DNA of 64,000 bases from Escherichia coli (lineage in GTDB: Bacteria; Pseudomonadota; Gammaproteobacteria; Enterobacterales; Enterobacteriaceae), in assembly GCF_017348835.2 (NCBI RefSeq), contig NZ_CP071375.1. One strand, written 5' to 3'. The notes under the pieces were generated by a model. That model did not search any database and had not been told where the DNA came from. It saw nothing but the letters and a program-made list of their open reading frames with translations. Below are positions 18,242 through 25,698 of the stretch, piece by piece. How positions within the stretch are numbered: position 1 is the stretch's first letter; each line of letters begins with the position of its first letter. A program made the translations under genes and the position numbers.

Positions 18242-19828
18242 TCAGCTTTTCAGCCGCCGCCAGAACGTCGTCCGACTGATGCCTAAATAATTCGCCGCTG
18301 CTGTTTTATCGCCTTTAAATTTCTCCAGTGCCTGTTGTGGTGTCAGTAAGCGTGGAGCGGGAATTTTCGCCGACTCGCGCGCCAGTTCCGGCAGTAGCAG
18401 CTGCAAAAACTGCGGCTTTAAATCCGGCGTCGGTTCCACACTTAAAAACAGCGCCAGTCGCTCCATCATATTGCGCAGTTCACGAATATTACCTGGCCAG
18501 TCGTAGCGCAGCAGCACGGTTTCACTTGCCTGTAACCCCTGGCGTAATGCAGCAGAAAATGGGGCGGAGAGCGCCGCCAGAGACACTTTCAAAAAGCTTT
18601 CCGCCAGTGGCAGAATATCTGCCACCCGCTCGCGCAGTGGTGGCAATTGCAGACGCAAAATACTCAGCCGATAAAACAGATCACGGCGAAACTGCCCTTG
18701 CCGCATATCTTCTTCCAGATTGCAGTGAGTGGCGCTAATGACCCGCACATCCACCGGAACAGGCTGATGCCCGCCGACGCGGGTGACCTCTTTTTCTTCC
18801 AGCACCCGCAGCAGCCGGGTCTGCAACGGCAGCGGCATTTCGCCAATCTCATCGAGAAACAGCGTGCCGCCGTGGGCGATTTCAAACAGCCCGGCGCGTC
18901 CTCCGCGTCGCGAGCCGGTAAACGCCCCTTCCTCATAGCCAAACAGCTCCGCTTCCAGCAGCGATTCGGCAATCGCCCCGCAGTTGACGGCAACAAACGG
19001 ATGCGACTTTTTGCCCTGTCGCGCATCGTGGCGGGCAAAGTATTCCCGATGAATTGCCTGGGCCGCCAGCTCTTTGCCCGTCCCCGTTTCCCCCTCAATC
19101 AACACCGCCGCACTGGAGCGGGCATACAGCAAAATAGTCTGCCGTACTTGTTCCATCTGTGGTGATTGACCGAGCATATCGCCCAGCACGTAACGAGTAC
19201 GCAGGGCGTTGCGGGTGGCATCGTGAGTGTTATGGCGTAACGACATGCGCGTCATATCCAGCGCATCGCTGAACGCCTGGCGCACGGTGGCGGCGGAATA
19301 GATAAAAATTCCGGTCATTCCGGCTTCTTCTGCCAGATCGGTAATCAGCCCCGCGCCGACCACCGCTTCGGTGCCGTTAGCTTTTAGCTCGTTAATCTGC
19401 CCGCGTGCGTCTTCTTCGGTAATGTAGCTACGTTGGTCGAGGCGCAAATTAAAGGTTTTTTGAAACGCCACCAGTGCCGGAATAGTTTCCTGATAAGTGA
19501 CAACGCCGATAGAAGAGGTGAGCTTTCCGGCTTTTGCCAGTGCCTGTAACACATCGTAGCCGCTCGGTTTAATCAAAATAACTGGCACTGACAGGCGGCT
19601 TTTCAGGTACGCGCCGTTAGAGCCAGCGGCGATGATGGCGTCGCAGCGTTCGTTTGCCAGTTTCTTGCGGATATAGGTCACTGCTTTTTCAAAGCCAAGC
19701 TGAATAGGGGTAATGTTCGCCAGGTGATCAAACTCGAGGCTGATATCGCGAAACAGCTCGAATAAGCGCGTTACAGATACCGTCCAGATAACCGGTTTGT
19801 CGTCATTCAGCCGTGGTGGATGTGCCAT
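18242..19828 (-). CDS. prpR: sigma54-dependent propionate catabolism activator (NtrC family)
   Basis: AAA+ sigma54-interaction motifs ([14 protein letters not shown]) and a C-terminal HTH; ORF 18242..19840 with the likely start [10 protein letters not shown] at 19828. Confidence 0.9.
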
Positions 19829-19871
19829 AGCGCACCGCAAAGTTAAGATACCGAATATTGGGTTTAGTCTT

Positions 19872-19929
19872 GTTTCATAATTGTTGCAATGAAACGCGGT
19901 GAAACATTGCCTGAAACGTTAACTGAAAC
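19872..19929. promoter_or_regulatory. PrpR-type upstream activating sequence: palindrome GTTTCAT-N10-ATGAAAC followed by phased TGAAAC direct repeats
   Basis: Read directly in the prpR-prpB divergent region; TGAAAC copies at about 19890, 19900, 19912, 19924. Confidence 0.5.
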
Positions 19930-20004
19930 GCATATTTGCGGATTAGTTCATGACTTTATCTCTAACAAATTGAAATTAAAGATTTAATTTTATTAAGTCA
20001 ATTG

Positions 20005-20020
20005 TGGCACACCCCTTGCT
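20005..20020 (+). promoter_or_regulatory. sigma54 promoter (TGGCAC-N5-TTGCT) for prpBCDE
   Basis: Exact -24/-12 consensus TGGCACaccccTTGCT about 45 bp upstream of the prpB ATG; adjacent sigma54 activator PrpR. Confidence 0.8.
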
Positions 20021-20066
20021 TTGTCTTTATCAACGAAAATAACAAGTTGATAACAAAGGATGGGCT

Positions 20067-20957
20067 ATGTCTCTACACTCTCCAGGTAAAGCGTTTCGCG
20101 CTGCACTGACTAAAGAAAATCCATTGCAGATTGTTGGCACCATTAACGCCAACCATGCGCTGTTGGCGCAGCGTGCCGGATATCAGGCAATTTATCTCTC
20201 CGGCGGTGGCGTGGCGGCAGGGTCGCTGGGGCTGCCCGATCTCGGTATTTCTACTCTTGATGACGTGCTGACAGATATTCGCCGTATCACCGACGTTTGT
20301 TCGCTGCCGCTGCTGGTGGATGCGGATATCGGTTTTGGTTCTTCGGCCTTTAACGTGGCGCGTACGGTGAAATCGATGATTAAAGCCGGTGCGGCAGGAT
20401 TGCATATTGAAGATCAGGTTGGTGCGAAACGCTGCGGTCATCGTCCGAATAAAGCGATCGTCTCGAAAGAGGAGATGGTGGATCGGATCCGCGCGGCGGT
20501 GGATGCGAAAACCGATCCTGATTTTGTGATCATGGCGCGCACCGATGCGCTGGCGGTTGAAGGACTGGATGCGGCGATTGAGCGTGCACAGGCCTATGTT
20601 GAAGCGGGTGCCGAGATGTTGTTCCCGGAGGCGATTACCGAACTCGCCATGTACCGCCAGTTTGCCGATGCGGTGCAGGTGCCAATCCTCGCCAACATTA
20701 CCGAATTTGGTGCCACGCCGCTGTTTACCACCGACGAATTACGCAGCGCCCATGTCGCAATGGCGCTGTACCCGCTTTCAGCGTTCCGCGCCATGAACCG
20801 TGCCGCTGAACATGTCTACAACGTCCTGCGCCAGGAAGGCACGCAGAAAAGCGTCATCGACACCATGCAGACCCGCAACGAGCTGTACGAAAGCATCAAC
20901 TACTACCAGTACGAAGCGAAGCTCGACGACCTGTTTGCCCGTAGCCAGGCGAAATAA
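20067..20957 (+). CDS. prpB: 2-methylisocitrate lyase
   Basis: 296 aa; recognised sequence and operon context. Confidence 0.92.
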
Positions 20958-20974
20958 AAAACGCCCGTTGATTG

Positions 20975-21080
20975 TATTCGACAGCCGATGCCTGATGCGT
21001 CGCTGACGCGAATTATCAGGCCTACGGGATGCACTGAACTGTAGGTCGGATAAGACGCATAGCGTCGCATCCGACAACAA
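20975..21080. repeat. REP element pair between prpB and prpC
   Basis: GCCTGATGCGTCGCTGACGCG...GTAGGTCGGATAAGACGCATAGCGTCGCATCCGAC palindromic units. Confidence 0.85.
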
Positions 21081-21117
21081 TCTCGACCCTACAAATGATA
21101 ACAATGACGAGGACAAC

Positions 21118-22287
21118 ATGAGCGACACAACGATCCTGCAAAACAGTACCCATGTCATTAAACCGAAAAAATCGGTGGCACTTTCTGGCGTTCCGGCGGG
21201 CAATACGGCGCTCTGCACCGTGGGTAAAAGTGGCAATGACTTGCATTACCGTGGCTACGATATTCTTGATCTGGCGGAACATTGCGAATTTGAAGAAGTG
21301 GCGCATCTGCTGATCCACGGCAAACTGCCGACCCGTGACGAACTCGCCGCCTACAAAACGAAACTGAAAGCCCTGCGCGGTTTACCGGCTAACGTGCGTA
21401 CCGTGCTGGAAGCCTTACCGGCGGCGTCACACCCGATGGATGTTATGCGCACCGGCGTTTCCGCGCTCGGCTGCACGCTGCCAGAAAAAGAGGGGCATAC
21501 CGTCTCTGGTGCGCGGGATATTGCCGACAAACTGCTGGCATCACTTAGCTCGATTCTCCTTTATTGGTATCACTACAGCCATAACGGCGAACGTATCCAG
21601 CCGGAAACCGATGACGACTCCATCGGCGGTCACTTCCTGCATCTGCTGCATGGCGAAAAGCCATCGCAAAGCTGGGAAAAGGCGATGCATATTTCGCTGG
21701 TGCTGTACGCCGAACACGAGTTTAACGCCTCCACCTTTACCAGCCGGGTGATTGCGGGTACTGGCTCTGATATGTATTCCGCGATTATTGGCGCGATTGG
21801 CGCACTGCGCGGGCCGAAACACGGCGGGGCGAATGAAGTCTCGCTGGAGATCCAGCAACGCTACGAAACGCCAGACGAAGCCGAAGCAGATATCCGCAAG
21901 CGCGTGGAAAACAAAGAAGTGGTCATTGGTTTTGGGCATCCGGTTTATACCATCGCCGACCCGCGCCACCAGGTGATTAAACGTGTGGCGAAGCAGCTCT
22001 CGCAGGAAGGCGGCTCGCTGAAGATGTACAACATCGCCGATCGTCTGGAAACGGTGATGTGGGAGAGCAAAAAGATGTTCCCCAATCTCGACTGGTTCTC
22101 CGCTGTTTCCTACAACATGATGGGCGTTCCCACCGAGATGTTCACACCACTGTTTGTTATCGCCCGCGTCACCGGCTGGGCGGCGCACATTATCGAACAA
22201 CGTCAGGACAACAAAATTATCCGTCCTTCCGCCAATTATGTTGGACCGGAAGACCGCCAGTTTGTCGCGCTGGATAAGCGCCAGTAA
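21118..22287 (+). CDS. prpC: 2-methylcitrate synthase
   Basis: 389 aa citrate-synthase family ORF in the prp operon. Confidence 0.92.
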
Positions 22288-22320
22288 ACCTCTACGAATA
22301 ACAATAAGGAAACGTACCCA

Positions 22321-23772
22321 ATGTCAGCTCAAATCAACAACATCCGCCCGGAATTTGATCGTGAAATCGTTGATATCGTCGATTACGTGATGAACTACGA
22401 AATCAGCTCCAAAGTGGCCTACGACACCGCACATTACTGCCTGCTCGACACGCTCGGCTGCGGTCTTGAAGCTCTCGAATACCCAGCCTGTAAAAAACTG
22501 CTGGGGCCAATTGTCCCCGGCACCGTCGTACCTAACGGCGTGCGCGTCCCCGGAACTCAGTTCCAGCTCGACCCCGTCCAGGCGGCATTTAACATCGGCG
22601 CGATGATCCGTTGGCTCGATTTCAACGATACCTGGCTGGCGGCGGAGTGGGGGCATCCTTCCGACAACCTCGGCGGCATTCTGGCAACGGCAGACTGGCT
22701 TTCGCGCAACGCGGTCGCCTGCGGCAAAGCGCCGTTGACCATGAAACAGGTGCTGACCGCAATGATCAAAGCCCATGAAATTCAGGGCTGCATCGCGCTG
22801 GAAAACTCCTTTAACCGCGTCGGCCTCGACCACGTTCTGTTAGTGAAAGTGGCTTCCACCGCCGTGGTCGCCGAAATGCTCGGCCTGACCCGCGAGGAAA
22901 TTCTCAACGCTGTTTCGCTGGCGTGGGTGGACGGTCAGTCGCTGCGCACCTATCGCCATGCGCCGAACACCGGCACGCGTAAATCCTGGGCGGCGGGCGA
23001 TGCCACTTCCCGCGCGGTACGTCTGGCACTGATGGCGAAAACGGGCGAAATGGGTTACCCGTCAGCCCTGACCGCGCCGGTATGGGGCTTCTACGACGTC
23101 TCCTTTAAAGGTGAATCGTTCCGCTTCCAGCGTCCGTACGGTTCCTACGTTATGGAAAATGTGCTGTTCAAAATCTCCTTCCCGGCGGAGTTCCACTCCC
23201 AGACGGCAGTTGAAGCGGCGATGACGCTCTATGAACAGATGCAGGCAGCAGGCAAAACGGCGGCGGATATCGAAAAAGTGACCATTCGCACCCACGAAGC
23301 CTGTATTCGCATCATCGACAAAAAAGGGCCGCTCAATAACCCGGCAGACCGCGACCACTGCATTCAGTACATGGTGGCGATCCCGCTGTTATTCGGGCGC
23401 TTAACGGCGGCAGATTACGAAGACAACGTTGCGCAAGATAAACGCATTGATGCCCTGCGCGAGAAGATCAATTGCTTTGAAGATCCGGCATTTACCGCTG
23501 ACTACCACGACCCGGAAAAACGCGCCATCGCCAATGCCATTACCCTTGAGTTCACCGACGGCACACGATTTGAAGAAGTGGTGGTGGAGTACCCAATTGG
23601 TCATGCTCGCCGCCGTCAGGATGGCATTCCGAAGCTGGTGGATAAATTCAAAATCAATCTCGCGCGCCAGTTCCCGACTCGCCAGCAGCAGCGCATTCTG
23701 GAGGTTTCTCTCGACAGAGCTCGCCTGGAACAGATGCCGGTCAATGAGTATCTCGACCTGTACGTCATTTAA
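22321..23772 (+). CDS. prpD: 2-methylcitrate dehydratase
   Basis: 483 aa MmgE/PrpD family ORF. Confidence 0.92.
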
Positions 23773-23811
23773 GTAAACGGCGGTAAGGCGTAAGTTCAAC
23801 AGGAGAGCATT

Positions 23812-25698
23812 ATGTCTTTTAGCGAATTTTATCAGCGTTCGATTAACGAACCGGAGCAGTTCTGGGCCGAGCAGGCCCGGCGTATTGACTGGCAGACGCC
23901 CTTTACGCAAACGCTTGATCACAGCAATCCGCCGTTTGCCCATTGGTTTTGTGAAGGCCGAACCAACTTGTGTCACAACGCTATCGACCGCTGGCTGGAG
24001 AAACAGCCAGAGGCGCTGGCGCTGATTGCCGTCTCTTCGGAAACAGAAGAAGAGCGCACCTTTACCTTTCGTCAGCTGCATGACGAAGTGAATGCGGTGG
24101 CGTCAATGCTGCGCTCGCTGGGCGTGCAGCGTGGCGATCGGGTGCTGGTGTATATGCCGATGATTGCCGAAGCGCATATTACCCTGCTGGCCTGCGCGCG
24201 CATTGGCGCTATTCATTCGGTGGTGTTTGGGGGATTTGCCTCGCACAGCGTGGCGGCGCGAATTGATGACGCTAAACCGGTGCTGATTGTCTCGGCTGAT
24301 GCCGGAGCGCGCGGTGGCAAAATCATTCCCTATAAAAAATTGCTCGACGATGCGATAAGTCAGGCGCAGCATCAGCCGCGCCACGTTTTGCTGGTGGATC
24401 GCGGACTGGCGAAAATAGCGCGCGTCAGCGGGCGGGATGTCGATTTCGCGTCGTTGCGCCATCAACACATCGGCGCGCGGGTGCCAGTGGCGTGGCTGGA
24501 ATCCAACGAAACCTCCTGCATTCTCTACACTTCCGGCACGACCGGCAAACCTAAAGGCGTGCAGCGTGACGTCGGCGGATATGCGGTGGCGCTGGCGACC
24601 TCGATGGACACCATTTTTGGCGGCAAAGCGGGCGGTGTGTTCTTTTGTGCTTCGGATATCGGCTGGGTGGTGGGGCATTCGTATATCGTCTACGCGCCGC
24701 TGCTGGCGGGGATGGCGACTATCGTTTACGAAGGATTACCGACCTGGCCGGACTGCGGCGTGTGGTGGAAAATCGTCGAGAAATATCAGGTTAGCCGGAT
24801 GTTCTCAGCGCCGACCGCCATTCGCGTACTGAAAAAATTCCCTACCGCTGAAATTCGCAAACACGATCTCTCGTCGCTGGAAGTGCTCTATCTGGCTGGA
24901 GAACCGCTGGACGAGCCGACCGCCAGTTGGGTGAGCAATACGCTGGATGTGCCGGTCATCGACAACTACTGGCAGACCGAATCCGGCTGGCCGATTATGG
25001 CGATTGCTCGCGGTCTGGACGACAGGCCGACGCGTCTGGGAAGCCCCGGCGTGCCGATGTATGGCTATAACGTGCAGTTGCTTAATGAAGTCACCGGCGA
25101 ACCGTGTGGCGTCAACGAGAAAGGGATGCTGGTGGTGGAAGGGCCGCTGCCTCCGGGTTGTATTCAGACCATCTGGGGCGACGACGACCGTTTTGTGAAG
25201 ACGTACTGGTCGTTGTTTTCCCGCCCGGTGTACGCCACTTTTGACTGGGGTATCCGCGATGCTGACGGTTATCACTTTATCCTCGGGCGCACTGATGATG
25301 TGATTAACGTTGCCGGGCATCGGCTGGGCACGCGCGAGATTGAAGAGAGTATTTCCAGTCATCCGGGCGTTGCCGAAGTGGCGGTGGTTGGGGTGAAAGA
25401 TGCGCTGAAAGGGCAGGTGGCGGTAGCGTTTGTCATTCCGAAAGAGAGCGACAGTCTGGAAGACCGAGACGTGGCGCACTCGCAAGAGAAGGCGATTATG
25501 GCACTGGTGGACAGCCAGATTGGCAACTTTGGCCGCCCGGCGCACGTCTGGTTTGTCTCGCAATTGCCGAAAACGCGATCAGGAAAAATGCTGCGCCGCA
25601 CGATCCAGGCGATTTGCGAAGGACGCGATCCTGGGGATCTGACGACCATTGATGATCCGGCGTCGTTGGATCAGATCCGCCAGGCGATGGCAGACTAA
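23812..25698 (+). CDS. prpE: propionyl-CoA synthetase
   Basis: 628 aa acyl-CoA synthetase with the AMP-binding motif YTSGTTGKPKG. Confidence 0.92.
   Translation: MSFSEFYQRSINEPEQFWAEQARRIDWQTPFTQTLDHSNPPFAHWFCEGRTNLCHNAIDRWLEKQPEALALIAVSSETEEERTFTFRQLHDEVNAVASMLRSLGVQRGDRVLVYMPMIAEAHITLLACARIGAIHSVVFGGFASHSVAARIDDAKPVLIVSADAGARGGKIIPYKKLLDDAISQAQHQPRHVLLVDRGLAKIARVSGRDVDFASLRHQHIGARVPVAWLESNETSCILYTSGTTGKPKGVQRDVGGYAVALATSMDTIFGGKAGGVFFCASDIGWVVGHSYIVYAPLLAGMATIVYEGLPTWPDCGVWWKIVEKYQVSRMFSAPTAIRVLKKFPTAEIRKHDLSSLEVLYLAGEPLDEPTASWVSNTLDVPVIDNYWQTESGWPIMAIARGLDDRPTRLGSPGVPMYGYNVQLLNEVTGEPCGVNEKGMLVVEGPLPPGCIQTIWGDDDRFVKTYWSLFSRPVYATFDWGIRDADGYHFILGRTDDVINVAGHRLGTREIEESISSHPGVAEVAVVGVKDALKGQVAVAFVIPKESDSLEDRDVAHSQEKAIMALVDSQIGNFGRPAHVWFVSQLPKTRSGKMLRRTIQAICEGRDPGDLTTIDDPASLDQIRQAMAD

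Follow-up and report, generated by a model that had tools for sequence, protein, structure and literature searches.

In the 64,000-nucleotide stretch of Escherichia coli DNA analysed here (the window), positions 19872–20020 are very probably the cis-regulatory module of the prpBCDE operon, comprising a PrpR UAS, an IHF-type spacer and a sigma-54 promoter. We base this reading on the identities of the flanking genes, the statistics of the repeat cluster, orthology with Salmonella, conservation, and the co-occurrence of the repeats with PrpR. The first-pass annotation had described a prpR–prpB control region with the architecture expected for PrpR-activated sigma-54 transcription, and this description is supported by equivalog matches for the genes, by the half-site of the enhancer CGTTTCATGAAACG, by an orthologous sigma-54 site and by the co-occurrence of hexamer and regulator. 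The succession of enhancer, spacer and promoter is the standard layout of an enhancer-dependent sigma-54 promoter. The elements and genes are as follows, with distances given relative to the predicted transcription start.

18242–19828, minus strand: prpR, encoding a 528-aa sigma-54-dependent activator (NCBIfam NF011953 equivalog, 1009 bits; also the TIGR02329 equivalog).
19872–19895: distal dyad GTTTCAT-N10-ATGAAAC, composed of L1 (19872–19877) and R1 (19890–19895) and spanning roughly −159 to −136.
19900–19905, plus strand: R2, TGAAAC; tgaaat in E. albertii and missing in Salmonella and Citrobacter.
19912–19917, plus strand: R3, TGAAAC; matching, by ungapped alignment, the right half of GTTTCATGAAAC, the proximal dyad of Salmonella and Citrobacter.
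19924–19929, plus strand: R4, TGAAAC; tgacac in Salmonella and Citrobacter, with TGAAACgttaacTGAAACg the same in Serratia.
19963–19975, minus strand: IHF-like site TAACAAATTGAAA at about −68 to −56 within the AT-rich spacer; it departs from WATCAANNNNTTR at one base.
20005–20020, plus strand: PprpB, sigma-54 −24/−12 promoter TGGCACACCCCTTGCT, 47 nt upstream of the prpB ATG, with the predicted +1 near 20031.
20067–25698, plus strand: prpBCDE, the 2-methylcitrate cycle operon, with NCBIfam equivalogs for all four genes and the RefSeq annotation of the identical strain.
20067–20957, plus strand: prpB.
21118–22287, plus strand: prpC.
22321–23772, plus strand: prpD.
23812–25698, plus strand: prpE.

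The matches of prpR and of prpBCDE to their NCBIfam equivalog models lie far over the model cut-offs, and the locus sits in the familiar yah-prp-codBA-cyn-lac segment. The prpR start at 19828 agrees with the RefSeq start codon. Pfam divides the protein into PrpR_N (PF06506), the Sigma54_activat AAA+ domain (PF00158), AAA_lid_14 and HTH_8 (PF02954), and its translation has GAFTGS as the sigma-54-contacting loop. RefSeq annotates coding sequences only at this locus, leaving the regulatory sites unmarked.

The PrpR/sigma-54 prp switch is already known and underlies the pPro propionate-inducible vectors as well as propionate biosensors. Transcription of prpBCDE requires PrpR with its co-activator 2-methylcitrate, sigma-54 and IHF, and cAMP-CRP activates both PprpR and PprpB (PMC5566544, PMC10101121). 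The K-12 PprpB used in pPro (Lee & Keasling 2005; Lee et al. 2005) is the same locus as that of our window. The K-12/B-type allele, represented by BLR(DE3), is 98.3% identical to the window over 241 bp, with all hexamers and the −24/−12 element identical; the window allele has two private substitutions in the array–promoter spacer, found in only 2 of 5220 records, and neither lies in a functional element. The rearrangement of the E. coli enhancer relative to Salmonella and the family-wide half-site arrays described below are possibly the only points not yet reported, and the motif may already have been described by Suvorova et al. in 2012.

A direct reading of 19600–20300 places GTTTCAT at 19872–19878, followed by 10 nt (aattgttgca) and by ATGAAAC at 19889–19895. 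The palindrome named by the first-pass annotation, GTTTCAT-N10-ATGAAAC at 19872–19895, is exact to the base, with N counted as 10 in the window. The hexamer search, run over all 64 kb, locates plus-strand TGAAAC copies here with starts at 19890, 19900, 19912 and 19924, together with one minus-strand copy at 19872–19877. The direct copies had been described as lying about one helical turn apart, and start-to-start distances of 10, 12 and 12 bp (mean 11.3) bear this out, with a cumulative drift of ∼0.24 turn across the four copies. In all, the array holds one leftward and four rightward TGAAAC(R) half-sites between about −159 and −102, that is, five hexamers in 58 bp, which start at −159, −141, −131, −119 and −107 relative to the predicted +1.

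The −24/−12 element, claimed as a perfect TGGCAC-N5-TTGCT, is indeed present at 20005–20020, and the +1 was predicted by setting the C of its GC dinucleotide (20019) as −12. The element aligns with Salmonella TGGCATAGCCTTTGCTTT, orthology here being defined by alignment, and it is kept in the prp orthologs examined. Upstream of Salmonella prpB, TGGCATAGCCTTTGCTTT was bound by sigma-54 in S. Typhimurium ChIP-chip (PMC3844500; Samuels et al. 2013), and expression of S. Typhimurium prpBCDE is 45-fold sigma-54-dependent (PMC3844500). For the sigma-54 holoenzyme, a gSELEX peak lies in the K-12 prpR/prpB spacer (PMC8743547). A consensus scan of 19780–20120, which is a weak test, returned no sigma-70-like −35/−10 site on either strand, and PprpR was not placed by the same scan.

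The cluster stands out against its surroundings. TGAAAC occurs 37 times in the whole window against 36.95 expected, so there is no global enrichment, and the hexamer search found no second cluster in the 64 kb. When the window was shuffled 2000 times with dinucleotides preserved, the densest 60-bp interval held at most three hexamers and five in 58 bp was never reached; in shuffles of the 226-bp intergenic segment, four hexamers were reached once in 5000. The exact sequence TGGCAC-N5-TTGC has a single occurrence in the 64 kb, counting both strands. At least one exact sigma-54 core appeared in 25 of 100 shuffled windows, and the core alone is therefore not significant window-wide. What lends it significance is its location, on the prpB strand and 47 nt before the prpB ATG, together with its orthology to a site that has been verified.

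Within E. coli, the 241-bp control region was found in 5218 of 5426 complete genomes, and that of strain PE164 is 100% identical to ours. Of 5220 E. coli records, 4523 share the 70-bp span of the array without a single difference. No other part of the control region varies nearly as much as the 69-bp spacer at 19936–20004, which is identical in 2 of the 5220 records and matched at all in 3070, and the window has substitutions of its own there, for example aaaGattt and aagTcaatt. In the aligned E. coli alleles, substitutions in the array region (GCGG to GTGG, attgCc to attgAc, and others in the flanks) all fall outside the hexamers; E. albertii alone has an altered hexamer, reading tgaaat at 19900. 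The −24/−12 core is likewise invariant among the aligned alleles except for a change of TGGCAC to TGGCAT in E. albertii. The distal dyad is unchanged in the sampled Escherichia alleles, and it is collinear and kept in Citrobacter and Salmonella.

Several further observations concern the locus as a whole. In the E. coli genomes collection, nine of 5221 control-region matches lie on plasmid-typed records rather than on chromosomes. E. coli SCPM-O-B-9504 (NZ_CP144930.1) has a truncated prpR between two IS1A copies, with the control region split from prpB, an arrangement that represents an IS-mediated rearrangement of the prp locus. The prpB–prpC spacer of the window (20975–21080) contains two REP-type palindromes, gcctgatgcgtcgctgacgcgaattatcaggcctac and gtaggtcggataagacgcatagcgtcgcatccgac, with sub-threshold matches to naRNA4 (RF02564). 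A search of 19700–21300 for non-coding RNA gave no Rfam match in the control region, and the only sub-threshold, REP-related matches were those between prpB and prpC.

We compared the window with Salmonella loci, found via partial PrpR proteins, and with loci from E. albertii, Citrobacter, Photorhabdus and Serratia. Escherichia, Citrobacter and Salmonella can be aligned without gaps over the whole array, as shown for two of them:

E. coli: GTTTCAtaattgttgcaaTGAAACgcggTGAAACattgccTGAAACgttaacTGAAACg
Salmonella: GTTTCAtaaatgttgcaaTGAAACagggcgattcGTTTCATGAAACgttagctgacacg

The E. coli region and that of Salmonella, the subject of Palacios & Escalante-Semerena (2000, 2004), are alike in their divergent prpR and prpBCDE genes, their collinear distal dyad, the TGAAAC that forms the right half of the proximal dyad, and an AT-rich spacer. 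Where Salmonella has GTTTCA as the left half of its proximal dyad, E. coli has attgcc (19906–19911). They also differ at 19900 and 19924, where the perfect TGAAAC copies of E. coli correspond to cgattc and tgacac in Salmonella. The array is 25 bp nearer the promoter in E. coli, with the first hexamer at −159 as opposed to −184, and the −24/−12 element reads TGGCAC...TTGCT in the E. coli window but TGGCAT...TTGCT in Salmonella.

A review table that cites a 2004 study gives the PrpR enhancer for Salmonella as CGTTTCATGAAACG (PMC4987338), and this sequence is the Salmonella/Citrobacter proximal dyad. Its contiguous 12–14-bp dyad is missing in the E. coli region, where only the right half (19912–19917) is found. 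The half-site of CGTTTCATGAAACG nevertheless occurs five times in the E. coli region, and the distal dyad that E. coli has in common with Salmonella is intact. In Serratia, two leftward copies are followed by TGAAACcgcgatTGAAACgttaacTGAAACg, the same 12–12 triple as E. coli 19900/19912/19924, with R2 aligning with copy 1. The last 19 bases of this TGAAAC-N6-TGAAAC-N6-TGAAAC triple are identical to those of E. coli. Because Serratia shares the triple, the direct-repeat arrangement is not a quirk of E. coli.

In the Salmonella assemblies GCA_017844845.1 and GCA_017844835.1 prpR is fragmented, and the former, the one of the two whose upstream region was read, has CGGCAT in place of TGGCAT as its −24 element. 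In GCA_023286045.1 the distal half-site reads GTTTTA, and its PrpR is recorded only as a partial protein that reaches the contig end. In some lineages of Salmonella, PrpR may be undergoing decay along with its cis sites.

The same hexamer accompanies PrpR well beyond these genera. We assembled 18 PrpR-linked upstream regions from gamma- and betaproteobacteria, the window included, and found at least three exact hexamers in 15 of them and four to five in E. coli and its closest relatives. A typical array has three to six copies and lies upstream of the −24/−12 element wherever the latter is recognisable. Such arrays precede the sigma-54 promoter beside the PrpR gene in Escherichia, Citrobacter, Salmonella, Photorhabdus, Serratia and the Oxalobacteraceae/Burkholderiaceae. 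The usual order is a GTTTCA block followed by a TGAAAC block, the exception being an L-R-L-R order in Salmonella and Citrobacter. A purine follows TGAAAC on its 3′ side at 66 of 72 sites, and we therefore take the unit to be TGAAAC(R).

Spacing within the arrays depends on orientation. Of 33 distances between neighbours in the same orientation, 20 are 10–13 bp and five more are 22–23 bp, and the betaproteobacterial arrays contain three to four direct copies at 10–11 bp. After close relatives are collapsed to lineages, 19 of 26 gaps fall in {10–13, 21–24}, with a binomial probability of ∼1e-6 against a uniform null of 6–35 bp; the test is a rough one, since the lineages remain partly dependent even after collapsing. 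The phased repeat pattern proposed for E. coli thus has comparative support from these 19 same-orientation gaps. The spacing between starts of inverted copies (6, 9, 17–18 and 26–32 bp) is far less constrained, and this variation among taxa does not readily fit a single rigid geometry of a dimer.

As a negative control, we used the remainder of a genome-wide locus scan in which 14 of 80 loci were PrpR-type and the others encoded generic AAA+ activators. Two of these 66 non-PrpR sigma-54 activator loci (254 kb) have at least three hexamers in 60 bp, where ∼0.1 such clusters are expected by chance in 254 kb, and both look like genuine arrays adjoining other activators. One, in a Bacillota MAG (locus L015, 3152–3177), is the array GTTTCAtttTGAAACaatgcGTTTCA; the other, in a Desulfofervidaceae MAG (locus L019, 2445–2481), consists of TGAAACA in three copies, the gaps being 20 and 11. 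A related HTH specificity may extend beyond PrpR.

A variant of the motif is seen in Xanthomonas massiliensis, where a sigma-54-type PrpR with 46% identity lies beside a −24/−12 promoter. In place of GTTTCA/TGAAAC, the repeats at this locus are GTTTCG/CGAAAC, and they lie ∼30–75 nt downstream of the prpR start, in the orientation of prpB. The recognition helix of this protein is LGVSRTTLWRWLR, compared with LGISRTT[F/L]WRRLK in E. coli and its closest relatives, and some betaproteobacterial recognition helices end in RKLR or RKIK. Covariation of recognition helix and motif, judged on CGAAAC in X. massiliensis against TGAAAC, was too weak to use. We also considered the X. citri PrpR palindrome GTTGCAA-N2-TTGCAAC, which is similar to the central TTGCAA of the distal dyad in E. 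coli, and set it aside.

The IHF-like site of the window has perfect counterparts in the betaproteobacterial prp orthologs, at −56 to −44. The Salmonella spacer contains no match to the IHF consensus WATCAANNNNTTR at one mismatch or fewer, and in Salmonella IHF is genetically required, according to work cited in PMC5566544. For CRP, a weighted consensus scan of the intergenic region gave best 22-mers with 6–7 of the 10 core positions of TGTGA-N6-TCACA, among them the 22-mer at 19914–19935, which has 6 of 10 and overlaps R3–R4. A CRP site has been reported to overlap the PrpR operator (PMC9452892), and one CRP site to serve both divergent prp promoters (PMC3105977).

Around the predicted start of PprpB transcription lies an inverted repeat, TTATCAAC-N11-GTTGATAA (20027–20053), with a perfect IHF-consensus match, TAACAAGTTGATA, inside it at 20040–20052 (about +9 to +21). 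This inverted repeat is kept in E. albertii and Citrobacter and is missing in Salmonella. A hairpin in the 5′ leader was rejected, as the RNA fold of 20027–20075 is weak (−7.7 kcal/mol, z = −1.7) and not significant.

Taken with the published requirements, these elements suggest how the switch would operate. The sigma-54 RNA polymerase would form a stable closed complex at 20005–20020, while PrpR would be tethered to the hexamer array through its C-terminal Fis-type HTH. Binding of 2-methylcitrate to the N-terminal domain of PrpR would give rise to an active AAA+ oligomer, which IHF-assisted looping would carry to the polymerase. ATP hydrolysis, relayed by the GAFTGS loop, would then lead to promoter opening, with cAMP-CRP adding catabolite control at both divergent promoters. 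In this scheme the dependence on 2-methylcitrate, sigma-54, IHF and CRP is taken from the literature, and the elements, their clustering, orthology, conservation and co-occurrence with PrpR are from the present analysis.

Each hexamer could plausibly dock one PrpR DNA-binding domain and, by extrapolation, R2–R4 may be occupied by PrpR in E. coli, which has no contiguous consensus dyad. The ∼11–12-bp phasing would line up several PrpR protomers and so nucleate the hexamer. Their placement on one face of the DNA, as the first-pass annotation suggested, would be only approximate because each 12-bp step rotates the site by ∼50°. We infer rather than observe this placement, because of these ∼50° steps, because the footprints were reportedly dyads and because the Fis-type domains of this family as a rule bind DNA as dimers.

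The main alternative is that the dyads alone matter, with symmetric PrpR dimers bound to the distal dyad at 19872–19895 and R2–R4 being debris of a lost dyad or weak auxiliary half-sites. The Fis-type DNA-binding domains of the NtrC family classically bind inverted repeats as dimers. Palacios and Escalante-Semerena, in 2004, reportedly found Salmonella PrpR footprints, the only ones available, over two dyad-symmetric sites, not direct repeats, and the proximal dyad was reportedly the higher-affinity site in that study. The enhancer listed for Salmonella in the review table is itself a dyad (PMC4987338). Degeneration of R2 in E. albertii and of R4 in Salmonella and Citrobacter points the same way, and the Salmonella prpR–PprpB cassette outperforms the E. 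coli cassette ∼3-fold in expression when both are tested in one host (PMC5566544), as might be expected if the enhancer of E. coli were the weaker. However, no sampled E. coli allele has a change in R2–R4, whereas the intervening spacers and the downstream region vary, Serratia has the same triple, including the identical TGAAACGTTAACTGAAACG, and the betaproteobacterial arrays are built of three to four direct copies at 10–11 bp. The invariance of R2–R4 and the Serratia triple weaken the dyad-only explanation, which we regard as rather unlikely.

It is improbable that the array serves mainly another regulator, such as cAMP-CRP, or PprpR as an autoregulatory PrpR operator, instead of acting as the prpBCDE enhancer. 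With just 44 nt between the distal dyad and the prpR ATG, the array and the prpR promoter must overlap, and both the published overlap of the CRP site with the PrpR operator (PMC9452892) and the use of a single CRP site by both promoters (PMC3105977) fit such a role, as does the position of the best CRP-like 22-mer across R3–R4. That match is nevertheless poor, at 6 of 10 core positions, and across classes whose intergenic sequences differ greatly, it is PrpR rather than CRP that the hexamer follows. PprpR has moreover been reported to be propionate-independent (PMC5566544), and roles for CRP or at PprpR could add to enhancer function without replacing it. An origin of the repeats by chance, as low-complexity sequence in AT-rich intergenic DNA, or as a mobile-element remnant, is so improbable that it can be set aside: the hexamer is unenriched window-wide and a quarter of shuffled windows contain an exact sigma-54 core, but shuffling never reproduced the cluster, which is conserved across genera and classes and resembles neither Rfam families nor repeats elsewhere in the window. 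Its conservation and co-occurrence with PrpR refute this origin.

Within the favoured reading of 19872–20020 as a PrpR-dependent module, we tentatively raise a broader idea, to which we give distinctly less than even weight: PrpR enhancers might be, instead of fixed dyads, evolvable arrays of 7-bp TGAAAC(R) half-sites, arranged in opposed blocks with ∼11–12-bp phasing, in which each half-site receives one flexibly tethered HTH. If this is true, half-sites would turn over freely, and the proximal dyad of E. coli would have been stripped of its left half, with a Serratia-like triple used instead. The arrangement would then be part of the reason why the E. coli cassette has a lower output than that of Salmonella, and DNA recognition by PrpR would be atypical for an NtrC-family activator. 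The practical value of the analysis is that it maps the E. coli elements to the base, which the RefSeq annotation does not. The difference between the E. coli arrangement and the footprinted Salmonella arrangement bears on the engineering of PprpB through the hexamers that could be altered, the constraint of the overlapping CRP site and the strength of the Salmonella cassette.

The module can be set beside the classical control regions NtrC-glnAp2, NorR-norV, PspF-pspA and XylR-Pu, which likewise have a site array ∼100–160 bp upstream of a −24/−12 element. In these systems an IHF-type bend lies between the two, and multiple sites nucleate the AAA+ oligomer. The classical enhancers, however, use dyads bound by dimers, whereas the PrpR arrays are opposed blocks of 6–7-bp half-sites, with direct repeats at ∼11–12 bp and a highly variable spacing of inverted copies.
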